This document shows, in pieces, positions 10,944 to 64,000 of a stretch of 64,000 nucleotides of DNA; position 1 is the stretch's first letter, and the number at the start of each line of letters is the position of its first letter. Source of the DNA: Flaccisagitta enflata (taxonomy: Eukaryota); assembly GCA_965153355.1 (NCBI GenBank), contig OZ231126.1, positions 38,812,001 to 38,876,000 of the forward strand. Direction: 5' to 3'. Both the position numbers and the translations under genes were made by a program. The notes under the pieces were generated by a model. That model searched no databases. It had not been told where the DNA came from and saw only the letters and a program-made list of their open reading frames with translations.

Positions 10944-12530
10944 GTAAGGTAAGGTAAGGTAAGGTAAGGCTTTAGCGCCCCTAGGCGAACTCCAGTTCGC
11001 ATTGCGGGGGCCTCGTGTCTCTTTCCCTTTTGTATAGTGGGATTTTTTTCGATTCATCTCCACTTTCAGAGTCTCGCTCTTTTTTTTTTGCCACTATACA
11101 TCGTTTTGGGTTCCTCGTTTCCACCCATCATAAGATGCCTTAAAACCGTTGACAGTGTTTTTTTCTCTCACTTCGACTGAAATGTTATTCCAGACATTAG
11201 CCGCGCGCACTGTGAAGAAGTTTTTCCTCACATCCAGTCTCGCGGTTTCCACTTTAAGCACATTTTTTTTTCGAATCTCTCCTTCCTCCGTTATCATCGC
11301 ATTCCGTCGCGTTGGCCTGCGCTCCACACTTTCAATCTCGAACCATTTGTTTTTATTTACTCGATTGAATCCGTTCAAAGTCTTGAATGCCTCAATCGCA
11401 TCCCCTCTTTCTCTTCTTTCCGTCAATGTCGTTAGTCCCACATCTTCCAATTTTTCCTCGTATGTCTTTCCCTTTGCATCCGATAGCAGCCTTATAAGTC
11501 TTTCCTGCACTTTTTCAAGTGCCTTCTTATCCATCTCCAGCCATGGATTCCATGCTGCTACTGCAAACTCCAGCTTTGGTCTAATGAATGTTTTATATAT
11601 TGGAACAAGCGTCGCTTACGTCCGATAGTGAAAGGCTCGTTGCATCTGACCCAATGCAAAGTTTGCGGCCTTTGCTGCTGCTGCACACTGTTTTCCCGGC
11701 TTCATGGATGTATCCACCCACACGCCTAAGTCTTTTTCTTCTTCTTCTTCCTCGATTTTTGCTTCCCCCATGAAATATTCAAACTTCGGGTTATTCCGTC
11801 CGACATGAAGTATTTTACATTTCGATGCATTAAACTTCATGGCCCATTTTTTTGCCCATTCAACCAGGTCATCGATGATCCTCTGCATTTTTTTTCGATC
11901 GTCATCATTTTCCACCTTGAGCGCGACCTTTGTGTCGTCTGCAAACATCCGTATCAGGGCATCTCTGACAGCTTGGTGGATGTCATCAATGAAGATGTCA
12001 AACAATGTCCCGCCTAGCACAGAGCCCTGCACCACACTACTTATAACTTCCATCCATTCCAACAGTTCATCATCCACCTTCACCCTCTGTTTTCTTCCTC
12101 TAAGCCAGTCTATAAGCCATTCCTTCACTTTTCCGGTTATCCCCATCGCCTCCAATTTCAGCATCAGTCTCTTGTGGCACACTAAGTCAAATGCCTTCGA
12201 GAAATCCAAGTACAGGATGTCAAACGAAACACCTTCATCCATCCATTTTGTTGTTTGGTCCAAGAATTCAATTAGATTTGTTTGGGGTGATCGCTTGGCT
12301 CTGAAACCATGTTGCGCTTCACAGAGCAAGCGGTTTACCTCCACGTGCATCATCACTTCCTCCTTCACTATCCTTTCCATCATTTTGCACACCACGTTTG
12401 TCAGACTGACTGGTCTGTAATTCCCGGGGTCTGCCTTTTTGCCTTTCATCTTATATATTGGCGTTACATTAGCTTCCCGCCAATCGTCCGGGATCTTCCC
12501 TTTTTCCAGCGACTGTTGGAAAAGAATATA
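10944..12530 (-). mobile_element. 5'-truncated CR1-clade non-LTR retrotransposon
   Basis: RT reading frame plus a short 3' UTR with a stem-loop (GCGAACT-CC-AGTTCGC, 10985-11000) and a (CCTTA)5 tail at 10945-10969. Confidence 0.9.
11094..12530 (-). pseudogene. CR1 ORF2 reverse transcriptase fragment with one in-frame stop (TAA at 11616-11618)
   Basis: Motifs IPDDWREANVTPIYK..GNYRPVSLT, QHGF, YLDFSKAFD, VVQGSVLG, MFADDTK, EKDLGV, KNFFTVRAANVWN. ORFs 11616-12449 and 11094-11534 are in the same frame. Confidence 0.92.
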
Positions 12531-12938
12531 TATATTATATTGTATGCTATAATAATGTATTGTATATAATTTTAATGGATATTGTATTGTATTGGTATTG
12601 TATTGTATTGTCCCAATACTTGAAAGTATTGTATTGGTATTGTATAGTTGACAAAAATGATATATAGCTCAGGCCTGGCGGGAATACAGCAAGGTTTAGT
12701 CAACGACAGTTGACAAAGAAAATTGACTGGACCAACAGAAATACACTAAATACAAAAAGGCAGACACACAGAATGAAAAAAAGATAAAGCCGCAGCTATA
12801 GCTGGTGGAGTGTGGCCTACACTTGATATGCGCATGACAAAGCTGAAGACTGTCTAAAGCGGAACAAACAAGACCGACAACGGCAATTGAAGCCGTGAAC
12901 GCCATTCCCGAAAAACTCCAATGAACAGGGACAGTGAG

Positions 12939-52696: not shown

Positions 52697-52812
<116 letters not shown>

Positions 52813-52824
52813 GAGAGAGAGAGA

Positions 52825-52892
<68 letters not shown>

Positions 52893-53036
52893 GAAAGAGA
52901 GAAAGAGAGAGAGATAGACTGACTCTATAAGTAGCGTTGTCTGTCTGTTGGTCCATTTCTTCCCCTGCCTCGCCCACACCTGATTGATATTGTTTACAAA
53001 GCTTTTTATTTTTGACTTGGTCCTGTTTTCATCGCA

Positions 53037-53693
53037 ATGATGCAGTTGAAAATCGGCCTCATCCTTGGAGATAGTATTCTTCATGGATATTTTTCCAACG
53101 ATTCCCTCCTCTGCTCCAAAATCAAACAACAGTTTGACCTTGACGTTGTCCAATCAGATTTTCGACCAGGGAAAACAACAGATTTTCTTGTTCACAAGGT
53201 TTTTCCTTGGCAAATGGCAGAATTTGTCAACAGACATGATTGCAACATCTTGGTCGACGTGTTTTTGATTTCTGGAGCAGTTGACCTTTCTGATTCAATT
53301 TCCAAAACTCTGCATTTCAATATCAAAGATTTCATAACGAGACGAAATGCAGAATTGAAAATTGTGATGGATCATCCGTTTGTCCGACGTTTGTTTGTCT
53401 ATCCCCTCACGCCTCGTCGCATTTGTAAAAATGACTTATGCGTCAGGTTTCCAAAATACTCAAATCGCAATTGGATCTTGATGGCAAATCGGTGTGTTCA
53501 TGATGTCAACCTTTCAAATATTAACTTTCACTCAAAGTTGCGTCATGTGCCCCCATTGCCTACAAACCAAATGTTGAAGCATGTTGCAAAAGATGGTATT
53601 CATCTAGGTCCAGATGGAAAAAGTGCATATGCATGGTCGGTGTTGCAGGTCTGTGAGCAAAAGAAATTCTCAAAGGATGAATTCCCTCCTTAG
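53037..53693 (+). CDS. SGNH/GDSL hydrolase-fold protein, in frame with the downstream Helitron ORF
   Basis: Block I LILGDS, block II RPG, block III SGAVD (Asn replaced), block V KDGIHL, with typical spacing over 218 aa. Confidence 0.75.
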   Translation: MMQLKIGLILGDSILHGYFSNDSLLCSKIKQQFDLDVVQSDFRPGKTTDFLVHKVFPWQMAEFVNRHDCNILVDVFLISGAVDLSDSISKTLHFNIKDFITRRNAELKIVMDHPFVRRLFVYPLTPRRICKNDLCVRFPKYSNRNWILMANRCVHDVNLSNINFHSKLRHVPPLPTNQMLKHVAKDGIHLGPDGKSAYAWSVLQVCEQKKFSKDEFPP

Positions 53694-53729
53694 CAACATC
53701 CAAAGAGTGAGGCGTCACCACTCCAATCA

Positions 53730-56700
53730 ATGGACATGCAATTAGCAAACTTTGAAGCTAAGAAGAGAGAAGAGAAGAAGAAGAGAGTTGATGCAATTTT
53801 GATTGATTCGTGGTCTGAAAGGCTTTCAAAAGACAGTAACGTATCGGTTAAAAAGGAGATGCATTTTAAATGCACTTCTTTATGCAAGGAAAGAAAAGCG
53901 CAAAAAATCAAAGACGTTTCAATCAAAGTTGCTCCAAAAAAGAAATCAGAAAAGAAAAAAAGAAAGCAAAAGAAAAGCGAGTTTCAAAGACCAATTGATT
54001 GCAGAGTTGACGCCTTTATCAACAGAAGTATTTTGAGAAAGCAGAAAAGTGGAGAGGAGAAACAAGTTGATCGACTGGTCAAAGATATTTTAAGAAAACG
54101 TTTGGTCAAGGATGTTTGCTCTTCTCCACTGCATCACTATAAGGGGGTTTGTCCATCTGCAGGCTCCTCAATCCTGAATCCTCAATCCAATGGTTTGTCT
54201 GCCAATCAACCCAAGAATTTGTCTGCTGATCAACCCGATACTTTGTCCGCTGGTCAACTTGCCGGTATATCTGATGATCAACTTGTTGGTGTGTCTGTTG
54301 ATATGTCCATTGGTCTATCTGATGATCCACCGTGCGGTCCTGAAGTTGATCCATCCATTGATCTATCTGTCAATCTATCCGCTGATTCATCTTACGACCT
54401 TTCAAATACTTCATTTTTTTATCATTCCGTTGGTCCAAAAATTGATCAACATGAGAGAGCAAATGCTGAGACGAGACTAAGGCAAAAAATTGTGTCTTTA
54501 GAACAACGACGCACAGCAACCAAGACTAAAGATATGATTTTTGAGCATATCACCAAACCCAACAAGCCTCGCAATTTTGGAAAGAAACAACAACAAAAAG
54601 TTGTGAAAAAAATGAAAAAATTCTTCAACTGTTTTACTTCCGAGTCCCATCAATTAACATCAGAGAAAATCCGTGTGACCTATCACACACGAAATGGTAT
54701 AATGGTAGAACATGTTGAAGCTAATGGTTCATGCAATACCATCTATAACAATATGAACCTTAGTGGAGGCGGCAAGAAGAGAACAGCCAGTGAAGAGAGA
54801 GATAGAAAAAGAAAACAAAGAGCTAAACAAGATGAGAAGAAAAAAGAAAAACTGAGAGAAGAAGCAAAGAATAGAATGAAGAACACGAGAGAAGAGCAGC
54901 CAGAAGAAGAAAAAGATGAATTTAGGGAAGAAGCAAAGAATAGAATGAAGAAGTTAAGGGAAGAGCAAAATGAGGAACAAAAAGAAGATGAGAAAAGCAG
55001 GGACAGAAAAAGAAAACAGCAACTGAGGGAAAAGAAAAATGAGGAAGAGAAGGAACAAGAGATGAGCAAGGACAGAAGAAGAAAACAGCAACTGAGGGAA
55101 GAGATCATGGTGATAAGAGGGGCAGGATTAAGAGAAGAAGCAAAGAATAGAATGAAGAACACGAGGGAAGAGCAGCCAGAAGAAGAAAAAGATGAATTTA
55201 GGGAAGAAGCAAAGAATAGAATGAAGAAGTTAAGGGAAGAGCAAAATGAGGAACAAAAAGAAGATGATAAAAGCAGGGACAGAAAAAGAAAACAGCAACT
55301 GAGGGAAAAGAAAAATGAGGAAGAGAAGGCAGAAGAGATGAGCAAGGACAGAAGAAGAAAACAGCAACTGAGGGAAGATCAAGGTGAGGAAGAACAAACA
55401 AAGAGTAAGCAAAAAGCTACTGAAGTTTTCAGTGATGAAGCAACAAAAAAGCTGATCTCCACAATGAGGAAGATTCAGATTCAATCTCACGATGAATCAT
55501 ACCAGGTAAATAGAAAGGAGATTGAATCTGAATTTCACAGTTTTTTCAAAGCAATTGCTGATGGACCTCATTTTTACTGTGTTTCATGTGCGCGAAGTAT
55601 GTTCCGTGAACAAGTGGTAAAACTGTCACAACTTATGAGAAACAAAAAAGTTTCTCATGGTAACATCAACATTGACTGGTTTAAGGATATCCCTAGTATT
55701 GATAACTGCTTGTATATCTGCAAGACATGTCAAAATCACATAACACGAGGTAATCTTCCCAAGTTAGCTGTGGCTAACAGCAATGAATTACCTAATGTTC
55801 CTGAATTACCTAATGTTCCTGATTTTATTAAGACTTTGAACGATGGAGAAGAGAGGCTAGTGGCACCACGCACCTTCTTTGTGAGAGTAAAAAGCCTTGG
55901 TATTGGTGCTCAACGCGGCATTGTTAGTAATGCTGTGAATGTACCAATACCAATGGAAAAAATGGTCTCTCAGCTGCCACTTACTTCTGCTGATAATGTT
56001 GTTACTCTGAATTTCAAACAAAAACTTAAGTATGACCATTCATACCTCACCATGAATATAAGTTTGGAAAATGTTTGCTCTGCATTGAATTACCTCATCA
56101 ATACAGAGCTTTACAAAAAGTTGGATATTACCCTAAGTGAGGGTAATATCTTACTCTTGAGAAACAACATAACCAATTCTATCATTGTCCCTCCATGTCT
56201 TGATGATATACAAGAGACTGTTGATGTTCCTAGTGATGTTGTTATGACTGATTGTGACAATATGTCTAGTGGAATGAATGGAGATACAGTTGCTGAGCAT
56301 GACATGGCAAATGATAATGTCAATGGTGTTGAAGATTGTGAAAATGCTCCTGAAAACGATGAAGTTGTTGATGATGAAGATGATGATGGATGGACTGAAA
56401 AAATGGAAAAGGAATGTCTAAATGTAGGTAATTCTGACACAATGATACTGAATGAGATCGAAGACATTAGCAATATTTCAATGGCATTGAAATCATTCAG
56501 TATCGCGCCGGGGGAGGGGCAAGTACCTCTTCCCCTGACTCTAGACCAACATGCGCTCAGAGCTGCGTATCCTACTCTCTTTGCAGGTCAATTACCCAAA
56601 GAAGGTTTGATATCACTCTCTATTGCGGATGTTGCAAAGTTGTACATGGAGCATCGTGATCCAAGGTTTCGTTTACACAACCAATTTCCATTTGCTCTTT

Positions 56701-56927
56701 ATCGTGTTGCACAAACATTTGCACTAAAAAATTCAGTGTTTGTGAACCTGAAAAAGAACAAATGCCTGGATGGTTCAAATATCACTGCCAAGGACATTTT
56801 AGGAACCTCAGGTAATAGTCTCATCCAGCATAATAGTGGGTATAAAGTACTCATGTCTGATAGGTCATCGCCAGCCTATTGGCAAAAAATTCAAGGTGAG
56901 TTAAAAGGGATGATACGCCAAAAATGT
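53730..56927 (+). CDS. Helitron/Helentron Rep-helicase N-terminal half (STPR-like repeats, Cys-rich/DUF6570-like region), truncated before the HUH motifs
   Basis: GPHFYCVSCAR, YICKTC, PKLAVAN, EERLVAPR, AVNVP, ALNYL..ELYK, IAPGEGQVP, YPTLF, DPRF, RSSPAYWQ, GMIRQ: the motif order I recognise ahead of the Rep domain in Helitron-like proteins. The annotated ORF tail to 56966 comes from the MITE. Confidence 0.85.
54855..55378 (+). repeat. 276-bp (92-aa) in-frame tandem duplication of 23-aa charged repeats
   Basis: REEAKNRMKNTREEQPEEEKDEF... starts at 54855 and again at 55131. Confidence 0.9.
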
Positions 56928-57385
56928 GAGTTAGTCTGCTTTCCACCAGCCTCTAGACTAATATGAGGGTGGGAAATCCAATGGTGAGGTCAGAAATGCT
57001 CTAGGACAAAGATTTATGACTTCAACCCAGACCTGAATGAGCATTTAGGCCCCGCACTGGACATTTTTGACATTTTCAGCACTCGAACTTGGGAGCCTAC
57101 TCAAAGCTTGCCCCCCTACTAAGCCTCTGGGCTCAAATCAGGATTTTATGTTTTTCTAGTTCTTCTAGATCAGTGAGAGAGGTCGCGAGAGGTGTTGTTC
57201 CCTGCCTGAATGCCAGTTTTGAGGGACAAAAGACAAACGGTAGCCATGTACTAACAAAATGTGGCAAAATGCATACTCAGGTCAGGGTTGACCTCATAAT
57301 TCTTTGTCCTAGACCATTTTTGACCTCACCATTGGATTCCCCACCCTCAAATTAGTCTAGAGGCCAGTGGAAAGCAGACCGACTC
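56928..57385. mobile_element. Palindromic MITE with GAG...CTC termini (Sola-like?) at the point where the Helitron ORF ends
   Basis: GAGTTAGTCTGCTTTCCAC / GTGGAAAGCAGACCGACTC and about 120-bp paired arms; no clean TSD. Confidence 0.7.
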
Positions 57386-59451
57386 AATTACTTCTTATTC
57401 TCCTCTTTTTCTGAAAGATATTACCCTAAGGGCCCCCAAAAAAGTCCCTAATGAGGATTTTTTTGAAACAAGTTTGATAGACAAACAATAGATGTGCCCT
57501 CGTCGGTACTGGTAGGTTTTTTTTTTTTTTAGGTAACCTTGAAGCATTTTAGACTGAAACAATTTCGCATTATTGAGATAAGGTGAATATATGTGATAAG
57601 AGGAGAAAAATGATGCGATGACATGCATTTTTCCAATTCTTTAATTCCATTTGAATGAATAGGATAAGCATCAGTTCATCATAAATTCAATACCTTTTAC
57701 TTATTTCGTCAAAAAGTTGGGATCGAATTCGTTATAAGGGCTTGTGTAGGGTAGGGAGGGGTGGGAGGGGTGGGGGGAAATCCACCGTCGCCCCACCCCT
57801 CGGTTGAATTTACCCACCCCTCACATCATCAGTCCACCCTCACTTCATTTTTCCAACTCAACGTGAAACTTAAAAATCACTATTACCCCTCGATCCACCC
57901 CTACCCCTCGATCCACCCCTACCCCTCAATCCACCCCTACCCCTCAATCCACCCCTACCCCTCAATCCACCCCTACTTGTACAAAAATCTCATTTACATA
58001 TTGCAGTCTCAATACCTTTAAGTTCAAGGATTCATATCAAAACTAAAAAGGGTGGTGGTGGGGAGGGTGGTGGTTCAAAATTGACCTACCCTTTAGGCTC
58101 CACCTCGTATACCCCTAGGTTCACCCCCTAGGTCTACCCCTAGGTCTACCCCTAACCCTAAACCCAACATTACCCCTAAACCCAACATTACCCCTAAACC
58201 CAACACTACCCCTACCCCTATCCCTCCATCCACCCCTACCCCTCCATCCACCCCTACCCCTCGATCCACCCCTACTTGTACAAAAATCTCATTTACATAT
58301 TGCAGTCTCAATACCTTTAAGTTCAAGGGATTTCATAGTTCAAAAAACCAAAAAGGGTGGTGGTGGGGAGGGTGGTGGTCTGGGGGACCACCTGCCTGTT
58401 TCACCTCGGTATACCTCTAGGTTCACCCCTAGGTTCACCTCCCCAACCCCATTACCCCTAACCCAACACTACCTCAACCCCAAACCCAACACTACCCCTA
58501 ACCCTAAACTTCAACACACCCTAGGTCTACCCCTATGTCTACCCCTAACCCTAAACCCAACACTATCCCTAACCCTTAACCCAACACTACCCCTAACCCT
58601 AAACCCAACACTGCCCCTAACCCAAAACCCAACACTACCCCTAGGTCTACCCCTAGGTCCACCCCTACAGGCTTTTACTCAAAACTTGATAAAATTCAAG
58701 ATTACAAAAAGTACAAAATCTCTATTTACATATTGCAGTCCTAATACCTTTGTCATGATTTCATAATTAAAACAAAAAGAAGTTGACCCACCCCTCGGTC
58801 TACACCTCAGTCTACCCCTCAGGCTACCCCTAGGTCTACCCCTAGGTCTACCCCTAGGTCTACCCTAAACTTTTAGGTCTACCCCCTTCAGGTCTACCTC
58901 AGTCTACCCCCAAGCCTTTACTTCAAACTGAAAAATTGCAAGATTGGCAAAAAGTACAAAAATCTCTACTTCATATATCAGTCTAAGGGATTCATAATTA
59001 AAAAAAAACAAAAAGGGTGGTGGTGGGGGAGGGTGGTGGTTCAATATGAAATTGACCTACCCCTCGGTCTACCCCTGTCTACTCCCTGCTTTTACTTCAA
59101 AAACTTGATAAAATTCTTAAGTTTCAGCCTACTTGTACAAAATCTCATTTACATATTGCAGTCTCAATACCTTTAAGTTCAAGGGATTTCAATTCAAAAA
59201 CTAAAAGGGTGGTAGGGGAGGTGTGGTTCAAATTGACTCCACTGCCCACTTTGTTCACTCCTCTCTCGGTATACTCCCTAGGTCTACCCTAGCTCTACCC
59301 CTAACCCTAAACCCACCATTACCCCTAAACCCAACACTACCCCTACCCCTACCCCTCCATCCACCCCTACCCCTCCATCCACCCCTACCCCTTGATCCAC
59401 CCCTACCTGCACAAAAATCTCATTTACATATTGCAGTCTCAATACCTTTAA

Positions 59452-60345
59452 GGCTATCGTTGCTTCAAAATGAAGTTACCCTGAATTTTTTTTTCTTTTA
59501 TAGAATGATAAATACTAGTGTAAGAAACCCCTTCAAAAAATTTCAGAAAATTGAAAAAACCCAAATATGAGCAATTTTTCAGACGCTCGCTAGCCTGACT
59601 GGGGCAACGGAGGAAGCTGAAATTTTTACTGAAGATAGAGAAGACATGTGGCCAGGGTAGACCTGTAAAAAGAAATTCAAATTTTATTATTTTACATACA
59701 ATAAATCCAAGAAGAAATCTGTAAAATGTAACCATATAGAGGCTAGTAGCTTTTTTGGGAATTTGTTCCAGGTCTACCCTGGCCACATGTTTTCTCGATC
59801 TTCAGTAAAAGTTTCAGCTTCCTACATTGCCCCAGTCAGGCTAGCAAACGTCTAGAAAAATGTCATTATTTTGCTATTCATTAGAGTAAAAATCGTAAGA
59901 AATACTGGGTAAAGGTACAACTTATGAACAATTTTTTTCATCAACTCTTTTATAGTCTCCCTAACTCTCAGTTTTAAAGCACAAATTCATAGAAGCAGTC
60001 AGCGTCTGTGGCTAGTGAGTAGATTGCCTGACATGAGCACTGTGATAATGCGCAGGGTGAGAATAGAAATGAATTTCTTGAAACATTGACCTGGGAAAAA
60101 GAGTTTGTGATTAAGGAGGGGCAGACACCCTCCTTAAGTCTGTTGTTCAAATCCTCCTCTGATACATTGATAATTTTCATTTTTTCCTCTTTGCTTTACC
60201 AAAGCATTCCTGATTTTGTTTTCGCTTTGTATCTTGGGTCAGGCAAATGCTCTATGGTTGAAAATTGAAAGAGAGACCCTCTTAACGCACATTGGTCATG
60301 AAAACAGATTTTTAAATATTCGACTATCTTGAGGAAATGTAAGCC
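59452..60345. mobile_element. Kolobok-like non-autonomous element (TTAA TSD)
   Basis: Splits the module ATACCT|TTAA|GTTCAAGG. TIR GGCTATCGTTGCTTCAAAAT vs GGCTTACATTTCCTCAAGAT. Internal palindrome at 59575-59860. Confidence 0.75.
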
Positions 60346-61629
60346 TTAAGTTCAAGGGATTTCATAGTTTAAAAAACAAAAAAGGGTGGTGGTGGGGGAG
60401 GGTGGTGGTTCAAAAATTGACCTACCTCAGTCTACTCCAGGTCTACCTAGGTTCACCTCTCTAGTCTACTCCCAACCTAAACTCCAACACTATCCTAACC
60501 CCCAAACCCAACATCACCCCCTAACCCTAAACGTGCAACACTACTCCCTAGGTCTACCCCCAGGTCTACCTCACCTCCAACCCCAACATTCACCCGACCT
60601 TGGGTTCAACACTACCCCCAACCTCTGTCCCCAAGACTACCTCTGTGGTCTCACCCAGGTTCACTCCCAGGTTCACCCCCAGGTCTACCTCAGGTTCACC
60701 CCAGGTCTACCCCAGGTCTACTCCCTCAGGTTCATCTCCCTAGGTTTTTTTAAACTTCAAAAATTTGATGAAATTGCAAGTTTACAAAAAGTACAAAAAT
60801 CTCATATATATATTGCAGCCTCAATATTTTTAAGTTCAATGAATTTCATAATTCAAAAAACCAAAAAGGGTGGTGGTGGAGAGGTGGTGGCTCGTGTTGG
60901 GTTTAGAGTTAGGGGTAGTGTTGGGTTTTAGGTTTGGGTAAAGGCTTAGGCCAGGCAAAAGGCCGGTGTTGTGCAGTGCTGCCTAGGTTAGGGCATGTTG
61001 GTCGAGGTTAGGCAGTATTGGGCCAGGCTTGTGTGTGCTACGAAAGAGGTGGTGCTGGGGCTTAGGCCAGGGTGTGCTGGTTTAGGCCAGTAGTGTAGGC
61101 TCTAGGGTTAGGTGCAGTGCTGGGCCGAGGGTTAAGGGTTGTGTTACACAATTAACAATGCCTTCCATCCACCCTACCCTTGACCCACCTCCCCTACTCG
61201 ACCCACCCCTACCCCTCGACCCACCCCTACCCCTCACCTTCCCCTCAGCCCACCCCTACCTACCCCTCGATCCACATCCCACCCCTCGATCTACCCCTCG
61301 GGTTAAATTCCCACCCGTCGCTACCCCTGCATAATTCCATCCACCCGTCGGATTTTACCCACCCGTCGCTACCCCTCGCTACCCCACACAAGCCCTTATA
61401 ACGAATTTTAACCAAAAGTTTCTTTAGGACTTTTTATCAAACTAATCAGGTAAGATGCTACCTACTTTTTACTTGGAGAACTTGATGCCTCAATCGATCC
61501 TAAGACTCAAAAAACAATACCGGGTCGATTCAGTTGAAACTAGGATTTTAATATTTTGAAAAATGAATTGAGGTGGGAGGGACGGGGGCTGGTTCAACAA
61601 CAACAACTGGAGCTTGCTAAACAATTGTT

Positions 61630-62385
61630 GACTGTTTGAGAGTGATTTGGCGTGAATAGGGTGACATTGAGAAAATGGGTTTCGGACGGAGACGGACACA
61701 CCCTCTTATAGAGATGCGAGGACGCATCTAATAATGATTGAGGACTGTTTGAGAGTGATTTGGCGTGAATAGGGTGATATTGAGAAAATGGGTTTCGGAC
61801 GGACGGACACACCCTCTTATAGAGATGCGAGGACGCATCTAATAATGATTGAGGACTGTTTGAGAGTGATTTGGCGTGAATAGGGTGATTGAGAAAATGG
61901 GTTTTGACGGACGGACACACCTTCATAGAGATGCAGGACGATTAATAATGATTGGGACTGTCGGAGAGTGATTTGGCGTGGGAATAGGGTGACATTGAGA
62001 AAATGGGTTTGACTACGGACACACCTTCTTATAGAGATGTGAGGACGCATCTAATAATGATTGTGGACTGTTTGAGAGTGATTTGGCGTGAATAGGGTGA
62101 CATTGAGAAAATGGTTTCGGATGACGGACATTGACTTTATAGATGAGGGACGCATTCATTAATGATTGTGGACTGTTTGAGAGTGATTTATGTGAATAGG
62201 GTGACATTGAGAAAATGGATTTCGGACGGACGGACACACCCTCATATAGAGATGCTAGTATTCATCTTACAATGATTGTGGACTGTTTGAGAGTGATTTG
62301 GCGTGCAGAGGGTGACATTGAGAAAATGGGTTTTGGACGGACAGACACATCCTTTTCTTATAGAGATGCGAGGCGCATCTAAAAA
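61630..62385 (+). repeat. Seven ~110-bp tandem units, each ending in a HINE-type 3' hairpin
   Basis: GACTGTTTGAGAGTGATTTGGCGTG...GGACGGAC..CTCTTATAGAGATGCGAGGACGCATCTAA; the last unit ends in AAAAA. Confidence 0.85.
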
Positions 62386-64000
62386 GTAGTGCAATTGATG
62401 GGAAATTGTTTGATTCGTCTACATCCAAAATCTTGTATTTTCACTTTTTCTCATAAAACTTAATAAGGATCGATCTAATTAGTTAAAGATGTCTCATGTA
62501 GGGTAGTGAGGTGGAGGTGGTCGAGGGTGTGAGACCACCCCTCGGCCCCACCCTCCCACCCCTTGGTTGAAATTGACCACCCCTTGGTTTACCCCTCCCA
62601 CCCCTCGGTTTACCCCTCCCACCCCTCGGTTTGCGACCTCCTCAGCTTACCCTCGTCCACCCCATCGGTCTACCCCTCGTTCTACCCCTGGGTCTACCCC
62701 TGGGTCTACCCCTGGGTCCACCCCTCGTTTTTTTTATACTTCAAAAATTTAATAAAATTGCTAGTTTGCAAAAAGTACAAAAATCTCATTTACATATTGC
62801 AGTCTCAATACCTTTAAGTTCAAGGGATTTTATAATTCAAAAAACCAAAAAGAGTGGTGGCGGGGGAGGGTGCTGGTTCAAACTGAAATTGTTTATAAAA
62901 TACACGACTATCATTTAAATTAAAATGAAAATGTCTACCCCTCGGTCTACCCCTCGGTCAACTTCGGGTCTACCACTGGGTCTACCCCTCGGTTCTTTTT
63001 TATACTTCAAAAATTTGATAAAATTGCTAGTTTACAAAAAGTACAAAAATCTCATTTACATATTGCAGTTTCAATACCTTTAAGTTCAAGGAATTTCATA
63101 ATTCAAAAAAACAAAAAGGGTGGTGGTTTAAACTGAAAATGCACAGCTATCATTTAATTTACAGCCTAGAGAAAAGAAACATTTTGCAGATATATATATA
63201 TAGACATTTTTCCCATAGCAAGTAAAATATTTCATTCGTGGTAAAACAAAACCTTTTACCTTAAGCAAGTTAAAATTTGCCTAACCCCAACACAACCCGT
63301 AACCCTAACACAACCCTTAACCCTAAACTCAACATTACCCCTAGCCCTAAACCTAACACAACCCTTAACCCTAAACCTAATACAACCCTTAACCCTAAAC
63401 TCAACATTACCCCTAACCCTAAACCCAATACTACCTTTAACCCTAAACTCAACATTACCCCTAACCCTAAACCTAACACAACCCTTAACCCTAAACCTAA
63501 CACAACCCTTAACCCTAAACCCAACACTACCCCTAACCCTAAACCCAACACTACCGGTAGATTTTTTTCTCAGGCGGAAGTAGCTTAAAAAGTGCTTTTC
63601 TTGTACCTAAGAATGTGTTACGAGCGCCATGGCGTCATTTTTCAGTCAAAAATTATAAGATGTAAACATATTTCAAATTTCTACATCAAATTGAGAGGAA
63701 TTTCATGCAATTTCCTTCATTTTGCCCCTCTCTTATGTAGAAAATCGGGGAAAAAAATGCGTGATCTTTGCGTGATGGAGGCTTCCTACCAAATTTTTTC
63801 CATTTATGATCTATTCCAAAGTGTTTCTTACATCCTATTCCATTCACTCGGGCATCTTTGAGAACTAGATGAAAAAAAAAATGGAAGTAATCTATCGCAA
63901 ATACGAAAAATTGTGGCCTCCCGTATATTGTGACTCAACCGGGAAAACTTGGTTTTTTTCTGCTTGTTGATATATGTGCGATAAATCGCTCAGATTAAGC

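Follow-up and report, generated by a model that had tools for sequence, protein, structure and literature searches.

An SGNH-fold domain probably forms the N-terminus of a truncated Helentron-type element in Flaccisagitta enflata

The DNA analysed here (the window) is a stretch of 64,000 nucleotides of repeat-rich eukaryotic DNA from Flaccisagitta enflata (assembly GCA_965153355.1, contig OZ231126.1, positions 38,812,001 to 38,876,000), and all coordinates below refer to it. Its forward strand contains two open reading frames (ORFs) that lie in one phase and are separated by a single TAG codon (53691-53693). ORF 1 (53037-53690) starts with ATG, has no introns and consists of 218 codons, or of 225 when counted from stop to stop from 53016. 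ORF 2 (53694-56963) has 1090 codons from stop to stop and is closed by the stop codon at 56964-56966. The original prediction, made from the sequence alone, had described the same pair as frames of 218 and 1066 residues, the latter running from the methionine at 53730 to 56927, and this description is correct. A read-through frame of 1309 codons with one stop in DNA of 40% GC cannot be chance, and no further long non-repetitive ORF is present near 53037-56963. A (GA)n microsatellite of ~220 bp (52698-52918) ends 118 bp before the ORF 1 start codon.

The locus is probably a dead copy of a high-copy transposon of the Helentron type (HLE2), the giant ORF of which starts with a conserved SGNH domain. 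From its N-terminus this single ORF would encode an SGNH esterase-like domain, a basic linker, a conserved mid-box, a series of 23-residue repeats rich in K, E and R, and DUF6570, followed in intact relatives by an HUH Rep domain, a PIF1 helicase and an endonuclease-like domain. The copy in the window would have been disabled twice, by a change of TTG to TAG right after the esterase-like domain and by a cut at 56921 next to an unrelated inverted-repeat element.

The N-terminal domain (53037..53690, 218 residues, forward strand) is assigned to the SGNH/GDSL fold from its predicted structure and from its motif blocks. The AlphaFold2 model of ORF 1, built on a 15-sequence alignment, has a pLDDT of 88.4 and a pTM of 0.85 and consists of alternating strands and helices. 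A Foldseek search of the PDB with this model gives at least 124 chains at E<=1e-3, in line with the fold that had been predicted; among the matches listed the natural proteins are all SGNH enzymes (PatB, GDSL lipases and acetyl-xylan esterases), and the non-SGNH entries are a few designed scaffolds. VIA-align superposes 165-180 residues at Z 13-14, with a sequence identity to cellular SGNH hydrolases of 12-17%. As GDSL lipases, PAF-AH Ib alpha (Z 13.6) and sialate O-acetylesterases are tied in this comparison, no subfamily can be named. Language-model features (Atlas) place ORF 1 with GDSL clusters at a score of 0.95. In Pfam, Lipase_GDSL_2 stays under its gathering cut-off (12.3 bits vs 32.9, E 0.24), although the match spans the profile from end to end (1-175 of 178). 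When family members were scanned singly, DUF459 was touched by 4 of 15 (best 1.8e-4) and Lipase_GDSL_2 by 3 of 15 (best 1.3e-3). The family profile had a sole match among PDB sequences, the SGNH enzyme PatB, which was reached via block V at a sub-threshold E of 0.19. With Pfam alone failing, the assignment of the fold rests on structure prediction.

Four SGNH motifs are present in ORF 1, as had been proposed. GDS begins at residue 11 (Ser13), PGKT at residue 44 (Gly45), GAVD at residue 80 and DGIH at residue 186 (Asp186 and His189). The catalytic Ser and the Asp-x-x-His of block V are therefore in place, and block III has Val82 at the position where Asn is canonical; both points agree with the original prediction. 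Compared with the canonical blocks described for TAP (GDSLS, ISGDTS, ELGGND and DxxH; PMC10792757), ORF 1 misses the block III Asn alone. The ND2 atom of this residue is described as the third donor of the oxyanion hole in canonical SGNH enzymes (PMC10792757). The first β-strand of the model begins at residue 4, which leaves no room for a signal peptide, and the domain would on this model be intracellular. Two further motifs, FPLTPR and FPKY..W, are specific to the family.

A phmmer search of 1.84 billion cluster representatives recovered 30 proteins at E<=0.001, 22 of them at 1e-10. The sole long match (P0030, 2230 residues, E 7e-4) is an unrelated DUF11/DUF7507 repeat protein and was discarded as spurious. 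Conservation of the blocks was counted over 32 sequences, window included, the denominators being the sequences that cover each block. The block I Ser is kept in 22 of 24, the exceptions being P0007 (Cys) and P0018 (Pro), and the exact GDS in 21 of 24. The Gly of block II occurs in every sequence covering that block, and Asp-x-x-His is kept in 16 of 18 (exceptions P0010 and P0025). Block III has Val or Ile in 21 of 23 members and Asn in the other two, P0013 (GANN) and P0024 (GAND). The ancestor of the family was probably a canonical enzyme, with the block III Asn lost within the clade.

The TAG codon that separates the two ORFs (53691..53693, forward strand) is private to the copy in the window. 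Three sets of DNA contigs were mapped, from two source-organism DNA runs and one marine metagenome (X1, X2 and X3). All three contigs that cover position 53692, one from each set, have T in place of A and so read TTG (Leu). The protein P0020 has 90 identities in 95 positions (95%) across the junction, with Leu at the position of the TAG. In 9 of the 11 relatives examined (P0001, 2, 3, 4, 5, 7, 8, 15 and 20) the frame runs on past '..DEFPPL' into 'SPLQSxD..LA..EAKKR'. In tblastn, P0001, P0004 and P0005 are collinear with the window from 53037 to ~54100-54170, and P0005, the SGNH part of which is 51% identical, extends to the mid-box and the first K/E/R repeats. Given Leu at this position in other copies and a frame that continues in relatives, the TAG is a private nonsense mutation. 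An alternative genetic code reading TAG was rejected, the next 1090 codons being free of stops and the other copies having TTG.

The most distant support for the fusion comes from a scan of metagenome contigs with the SGNH family alignment, which found one locus (L001), a single ORF of 888 codons whose 3' end is open. Its matches to the window cover the SGNH part (34% identity over 222 residues, E 2e-33) and again the mid-box and repeats (37% over 147 residues, E 9e-17). These blocks are collinear with those of the window, with a different, Pro/Ser-rich linker between them. The same scan of viral contigs found no locus. On these alignments a single long ORF has the SGNH domain as its N-terminus across a family that has diverged to ~34% identity. 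The original prediction had set chance adjacency against its own proposal; since relatives down to 34% identity keep the SGNH domain, the mid-box and the repeats in one ORF, the neighbourhood of SGNH and Helitron-type sequence is not due to chance.

The linker (53694..54560, forward strand), delimited by the family alignment and by tblastn of P0001, P0004 and P0005, starts with the conserved 'SPLQSxD..LA..EAKKR' and continues as basic, K/R-rich and low-complexity sequence that varies among relatives. The K/R-rich sequence may resemble a nuclear localization signal. The motif 'FPPL....SPLQSxD..LA..EAKKR' right after the SGNH domain (53694-53760) is found in nearly all relatives, unlike the remaining linker, and could be a processing or interaction site. 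The mid-box (54561..54776, forward strand; '..KKMKKFF..EKIRVTYHT.NG.MVEHV....NLSGGGKKR') is recognized by its matches in L001 and P0005, with 48% identity to residues 543-615 of the latter, and has no Pfam family at its cut-off. Tandem Repeats Finder places K/E/R-rich repeats with a period of 69 bp (23 residues) at 54828..55394 on the forward strand. Within them lies a tandem duplication of 276 bp (54855-55378, 1.9 copies, 98% matches), parts of which are skipped by some contigs of the mapped runs; this expansion is in frame, recent and restricted to the window copy or its close kin. The STPR profile of Pfam has no match in the ORFs at E<=1 or E<=10, and the repeats are STPR-like by period only, that of STPR being 23 residues as well.

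The last part of the frame (55488..56921, forward strand) corresponds to the pre-catalytic N-terminal region of a RepHel protein of the Helentron/HLE2 type, identified by DUF6570 and by matches to P0031 and P0032. It comprises a Cys-rich stretch, DUF6570 (Pfam E 9.4e-12, 55746-56150, ORF residues 685-819), an acidic stretch and a Rep lead-in ending ..SSPAYWQKIQGELKGMIRQ. DUF6570 is the only Pfam family in the long ORF (53694-56963), with neither Helitron_like_N nor PIF1. Of the profiles that the original prediction had named for the joined translation, DUF6570 was thus recovered, while SGNH stayed below the cut-off and STPR and Helitron_like_N were absent. In HELIANO, DUF6570 is described as sharing an ORF with RepHel and as marking HLE2 (Helentron/Helitron2), and an endonuclease domain as enriched in one HLE2 subgroup (PMC11417382). 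Judged by the DUF6570 marker and by the endonuclease-like domain of its relatives, the element is of the Helentron/HLE2 type, a point that had been overlooked.

Relatives of this part were found by a protein search with read-through residues 880-1309. P0031 (1975 residues) aligns with 96% of the query part at 46% identity, its residues 12-433 matching at E 5e-118, and contains DUF6570, Helitron_like_N (6.5e-30, residues 337-537), PIF1 (2.1e-18) and a sub-threshold Exo_endo_phos. P0032 (1731 residues, 64% identity) likewise carries Helitron_like_N, PIF1 and a weak Exo_endo_phos, and P0033 (1336 residues) is 27% identical to the query part. The endonuclease-like region of the relatives is seen as sub-threshold Exo_endo_phos only (E 9e-4 to 0.06). 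Their shared C-terminal tail (~1745-1975 of P0031, also in P0032), which follows this region, shows a Cys...His pattern. HELIANO reports Herpes_teg_N in HLE2 (PMC11417382), and the tail of P0031 could be a cysteine protease or Herpes_teg_N-like domain; it has no Pfam match at E<=10 and no Atlas match.

When P0031, P0032 and P0033 are aligned to the 64-kb window by tblastn, all alignments end at 56921, and nothing else is found at E<=1, be it Rep, PIF1 or endonuclease. Of the Rep lead-in just the initial residues are present (..SSPAYWQKI..GMIRQ), whereas in the relatives the sequence goes on to 'LG.PTFFLTFSAAE..', with which the Rep core begins. RepHel homology stops at the truncation point (56922..56926, forward strand), from where the frame enters an inserted repeat until the stop at 56964-56966. 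This repeat is an inverted-repeat, MITE-like element of 460 bp (56927..57386, no strand assigned), which has arms of 120 nucleotides that are 88% complementary and lies outside the Helentron. Contigs with other left flanks begin at 56921-56928. In the two source-organism DNA runs the summed contig depth over 56930-57569 is ~4,800-86,000 vs ~2,000-2,800 on the adjacent Helentron sequence, and at the border of the element it rises ~10- to 40-fold, to 19,000-86,000; the element is among the most abundant repeats met here. The window copy is truncated right before the catalytic domains, the cause being an insertion or a later rearrangement. A short frame past 57387 looked vaguely PTFFLTFS-like by eye; tblastn found nothing there, and a resumption of the ORF beyond the inverted-repeat element was discarded. 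The long ORF, which had been read as a replication protein, consequently holds DUF6570 and the Rep lead-in only. Nor can the proposed functional polyprotein be upheld for this copy, which has a nonsense codon and a 3' truncation and is without Rep and helicase.

The ORF belongs to a repeat family. Along 52930-57700, 480-1331 short contigs were matched per DNA run, and in X1 these divide into 200 at 99% identity or more, 215 at 95-99%, 672 at 90-95% and 81 below 90%. All 30 bins of the region are covered, the SGNH bins to much the same depth as other parts of the ORF. Although depth is not a copy number, the contigs belong to a multi-copy family whose members differ in age, and the esterase part lies inside the repeated unit. 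The host of the HLE2 family is a eukaryote whose DNA also occurs in marine metagenomes. Of the 40 best-supported differences between the window and other copies (out of 473), 38 fall inside the ORF. These 38 comprise 23 synonymous and 15 non-synonymous differences, with 11 and 6, respectively, in the SGNH part. Random single-base changes would be expected to give a synonymous share of ~21% (binomial p ~1e-4 for each part), an excess that is indicative only, the sample being small, preselected by the tool and drawn from mixed paralogous contigs. It suggests that the copies diverged under selection for the protein, the esterase included. A poly(A) RNA run (X14, of which ~6% was read) contributed 17 reads, all in bins that hold an A/T/G-rich simple stretch (~56358-56392) and a purine-rich stretch near 53890-54049, and is uninformative on expression.

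Elsewhere in the window, C-rich tandem repeats with periods of 6, 12, 18 and 24 bp (CCCTAA/ACCCCT type) and a higher-order unit of ~299 bp occupy 57750-63600, with a 111-bp satellite at 61624-62382. The only reverse transcriptase seen is a LINE-like fragment on the reverse strand (RVT_1, E 1.3e-30, 11619-12668), 40 kb off and unrelated.

In full-length elements one protein would unite SGNH, Rep, helicase and endonuclease. This architecture is deduced from an overlap: the window joins SGNH to DUF6570, and P0031 joins DUF6570 to the endonuclease-like region. Among the sequences examined the window alone connects SGNH with DUF6570 and the Rep lead-in. Several observations count against a giant ORF that begins with an esterase-like domain and ends in a complete RepHel, beyond the sub-threshold Pfam and PatB matches and the limited sample of differences described above. 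No single sequence examined joins SGNH with a Rep or helicase domain, and P0031, P0032 and P0033 begin downstream of the position expected for SGNH; sublineages of the HLE2 family that are devoid of SGNH are possible. Protein searches for long SGNH-bearing relatives found none above 629 residues. The longest of them (P0005, P0034 and P0035, 514-629 residues) occupy most of their contigs of 2.0-2.5 kb, which counts in favour of one ORF in the family. A search with the whole read-through ORF, in which the 8000 top word-sharing candidates gave no match, is uninformative, low-complexity K/E words being suspected of having displaced true relatives among the candidates. The original prediction of an SGNH domain in a Helitron-type ORF therefore stands as regards the in-frame fusion, which relatives keep, and is not borne out as regards one sequence joining SGNH, Rep and PIF1.

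The separation of the two ORFs could also be natural. In a two-ORF element with programmed read-through of the TAG the esterase would be a separate ORF1 that is occasionally extended into the Rep protein, and the in-frame TAG does lie exactly at the domain border in the window. The codon is a sense codon in every other copy examined (TTG in 3 of 3 contigs, Leu in P0020), however, and the frame is unbroken in 9 of 11 relatives and in L001, which makes this explanation extremely improbable. Hardly better placed is the proposal that the locus derives from a host multi-domain gene, or from the domesticated N-terminus of a Helentron with an esterase fused to it, and has become a pseudogene in the window. 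It would account for a window without Rep or helicase and for the fact that no SGNH-bearing sequence examined reaches the Rep domain. It is very improbable when set against the hundreds of contigs per DNA run, which range from 99% to below 90% identity and show the whole ORF to be a repeat family, and against the 46-64% identity to bona fide RepHel proteins up to the Rep lead-in. The cut, moreover, coincides with the end of another repeat, as expected of a truncation and not of a natural protein end.

That the domain is a passenger, a texim-like host SGNH gene carried by or fused by chance into a Helitron-type element and without a role there, has more in its favour and is still improbable. 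Gene capture is frequent among Helitron-like elements, the additional domains are regarded as ancient captures in HELIANO (PMC11417382), and in teleosts texim genes are reported 0-3 kb upstream of Helitron coding regions, most Helitrons there being without texim (PMC4021074). The domain described here is nevertheless intronless and sits at the extreme N-terminus of the same ORF, where it remains in frame, together with the mid-box and the repeats, down to 34% identity. It keeps the catalytic Ser, Asp and His, and its differences between copies are mostly synonymous (11 of 17), whereas a useless passenger would decay. A more serious contender, although we regard it as rather unlikely, is a non-catalytic module that binds a ligand or lipid and has lost the oxyanion Asn of block III. 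The replacement of this third donor by Val or Ile throughout most of the family speaks for it. The Ser and the Asp-x-x-His are kept across 35-82% identity, for which pure binding would have no need; the two backbone donors of the oxyanion hole (the Ser and Gly amides) remain; and the two distant members with GANN and GAND retain the Asn.

As to what the SGNH domain at the head of the Helentron-type ORF may do, it could be a module of the transposase that binds lipids and is an active, or weakly active, acyl-esterase. Through it the transposase, or its complex with DNA, would be tethered or trafficked at membranes such as the nuclear envelope. The model for this is the esterase of ORF1p from the zebrafish L2 element ZfL2-1, which is reported to hydrolyse esters and to bind liposomes as well as acidic phospholipids (PMC3905857). 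A role linked to membranes or lipids, in which catalysis is weak at least, is put forward tentatively, at somewhat less than an even chance. Two points weigh against it: the role is argued by analogy only, and with the oxyanion Asn lost in so much of the family catalysis may be weak or lost. The kept Ser, Asp and His mildly favour catalysis. What this reading and the purely binding one leave of the probability goes to action on some other substrate, for example as a deacetylase of a host factor. A stronger version, in which the SGNH domain is the obligatory and catalytically competent N-terminus of RepHel in a widespread marine Helentron lineage, with a role like that of LINE ORF1p, is unlikely. 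It would imply targeting to membranes or the nuclear envelope, or passage between cells and hence horizontal spread.

The element resembles HLE2 RepHel elements as described (PMC11417382, PMC6431247) in that DUF6570 precedes Rep within one ORF. It is likewise a high-copy repeat, with 46-64% identity to proteins containing Helitron_like_N, PIF1 and a weak Exo_endo_phos. It differs from those descriptions in the SGNH domain at its N-terminus, and its copy in the window is without Rep, helicase and endonuclease. The main text of the HELIANO report (PMC11417382) does not contain the words SGNH, GDSL, lipase, esterase or texim. With 12-16 bits the SGNH domain would fall below the Pfam filter of E<=1e-3 in HELIANO in most copies. 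Besides texim, no SGNH/GDSL esterase linked to a Helitron or Helentron was found among the papers returned by full-text searches, judged by title or abstract.

The linkage of texim to Helitrons is the nearest precedent (PMC4021074). In teleosts these SGNH genes are described as lying just upstream of Helitron coding regions or as enclosing a Helitron in their last intron. Two of them, teximYa and teximYb, stand as genes of their own with 15 exons each, the Helitron being placed 3 kb downstream or within the final intron; no SGNH-Helitron link is reported for amphioxus or sea urchin, and the capture is placed in bony fish (PMC4021074). Both systems have an SGNH-type esterase directly 5' of a Helitron-type coding region in the same orientation, and in both the distribution is patchy. 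Here, by contrast, and with texim compared by description only, the esterase is intronless, is fused in frame and belongs to an HLE2 lineage of marine samples. The architecture had been called non-standard; this agrees with the absence of SGNH from the HELIANO main text, and has to be qualified by the teleost precedent.

Among retrotransposons, an SGNH esterase domain in ORF1p of CR1/L2/RTEX LINEs was reportedly recognized by Kapitonov and Jurka in 2003. As in these proteins (PMC3905857), an intracellular SGNH esterase would come first in the mobile element, at the N-terminal 'first protein' position. The present element is a rolling-circle DNA transposon and not a retrotransposon, no coiled coil was identified in it, it has no adjacent reverse transcriptase, and the SGNH domain is followed by Helentron N-terminal sequence where LINEs have the reverse transcriptase ORF2. 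No sequence link to the LINE ORF1 esterases emerged from the search of PDB sequences with the family profile, in which PatB was the only match. Bdelloid Vesta LTR elements and Athena/Terminon elements have also recruited GDSL/SGNH domains independently (PMC5408684, PMC6431247); in contrast to the present case these are retroelements with separate ORF3s, in most of which the S-G-N-H residues are described as intact. A lipid- or membrane-type role is discussed for the GDSL ORFs of the bdelloid LTR elements and Terminons too (PMC5408684, PMC6431247). With cellular SGNH hydrolases (PAF-AH Ib alpha, sialate O-acetylesterase and bacterial GDSL lipases) the domain shares the fold and blocks I, II and V, and it is set apart from them by its low identity, the block III Val, its family-specific motifs and its place in a transposon ORF.

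The copy in the window is a fossil, and its importance is confined to joining the SGNH part physically to the Helentron part. The domain is a case that surveys of Helitron accessory domains based on Pfam thresholds would miss (12-16 bits vs 32.9). SGNH/GDSL esterases have been recruited by LINEs (as part of ORF1p), by bdelloid LTR elements and by Terminons. A selected esterase on a rolling-circle transposase would extend this convergence to a class without an RNA or ribonucleoprotein stage, which would argue against explanations specific to ribonucleoproteins and for a general role in membranes, trafficking or host interaction. Were the stronger version given above true, at least four unrelated classes of transposon would have converged on the same enzyme. 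The direction of the link that joins texim to Helitrons in fish is also re-opened; a bolder corollary, if true, would be that the teleost texim genes descend from a Helitron-borne domain and not from a captured host gene.

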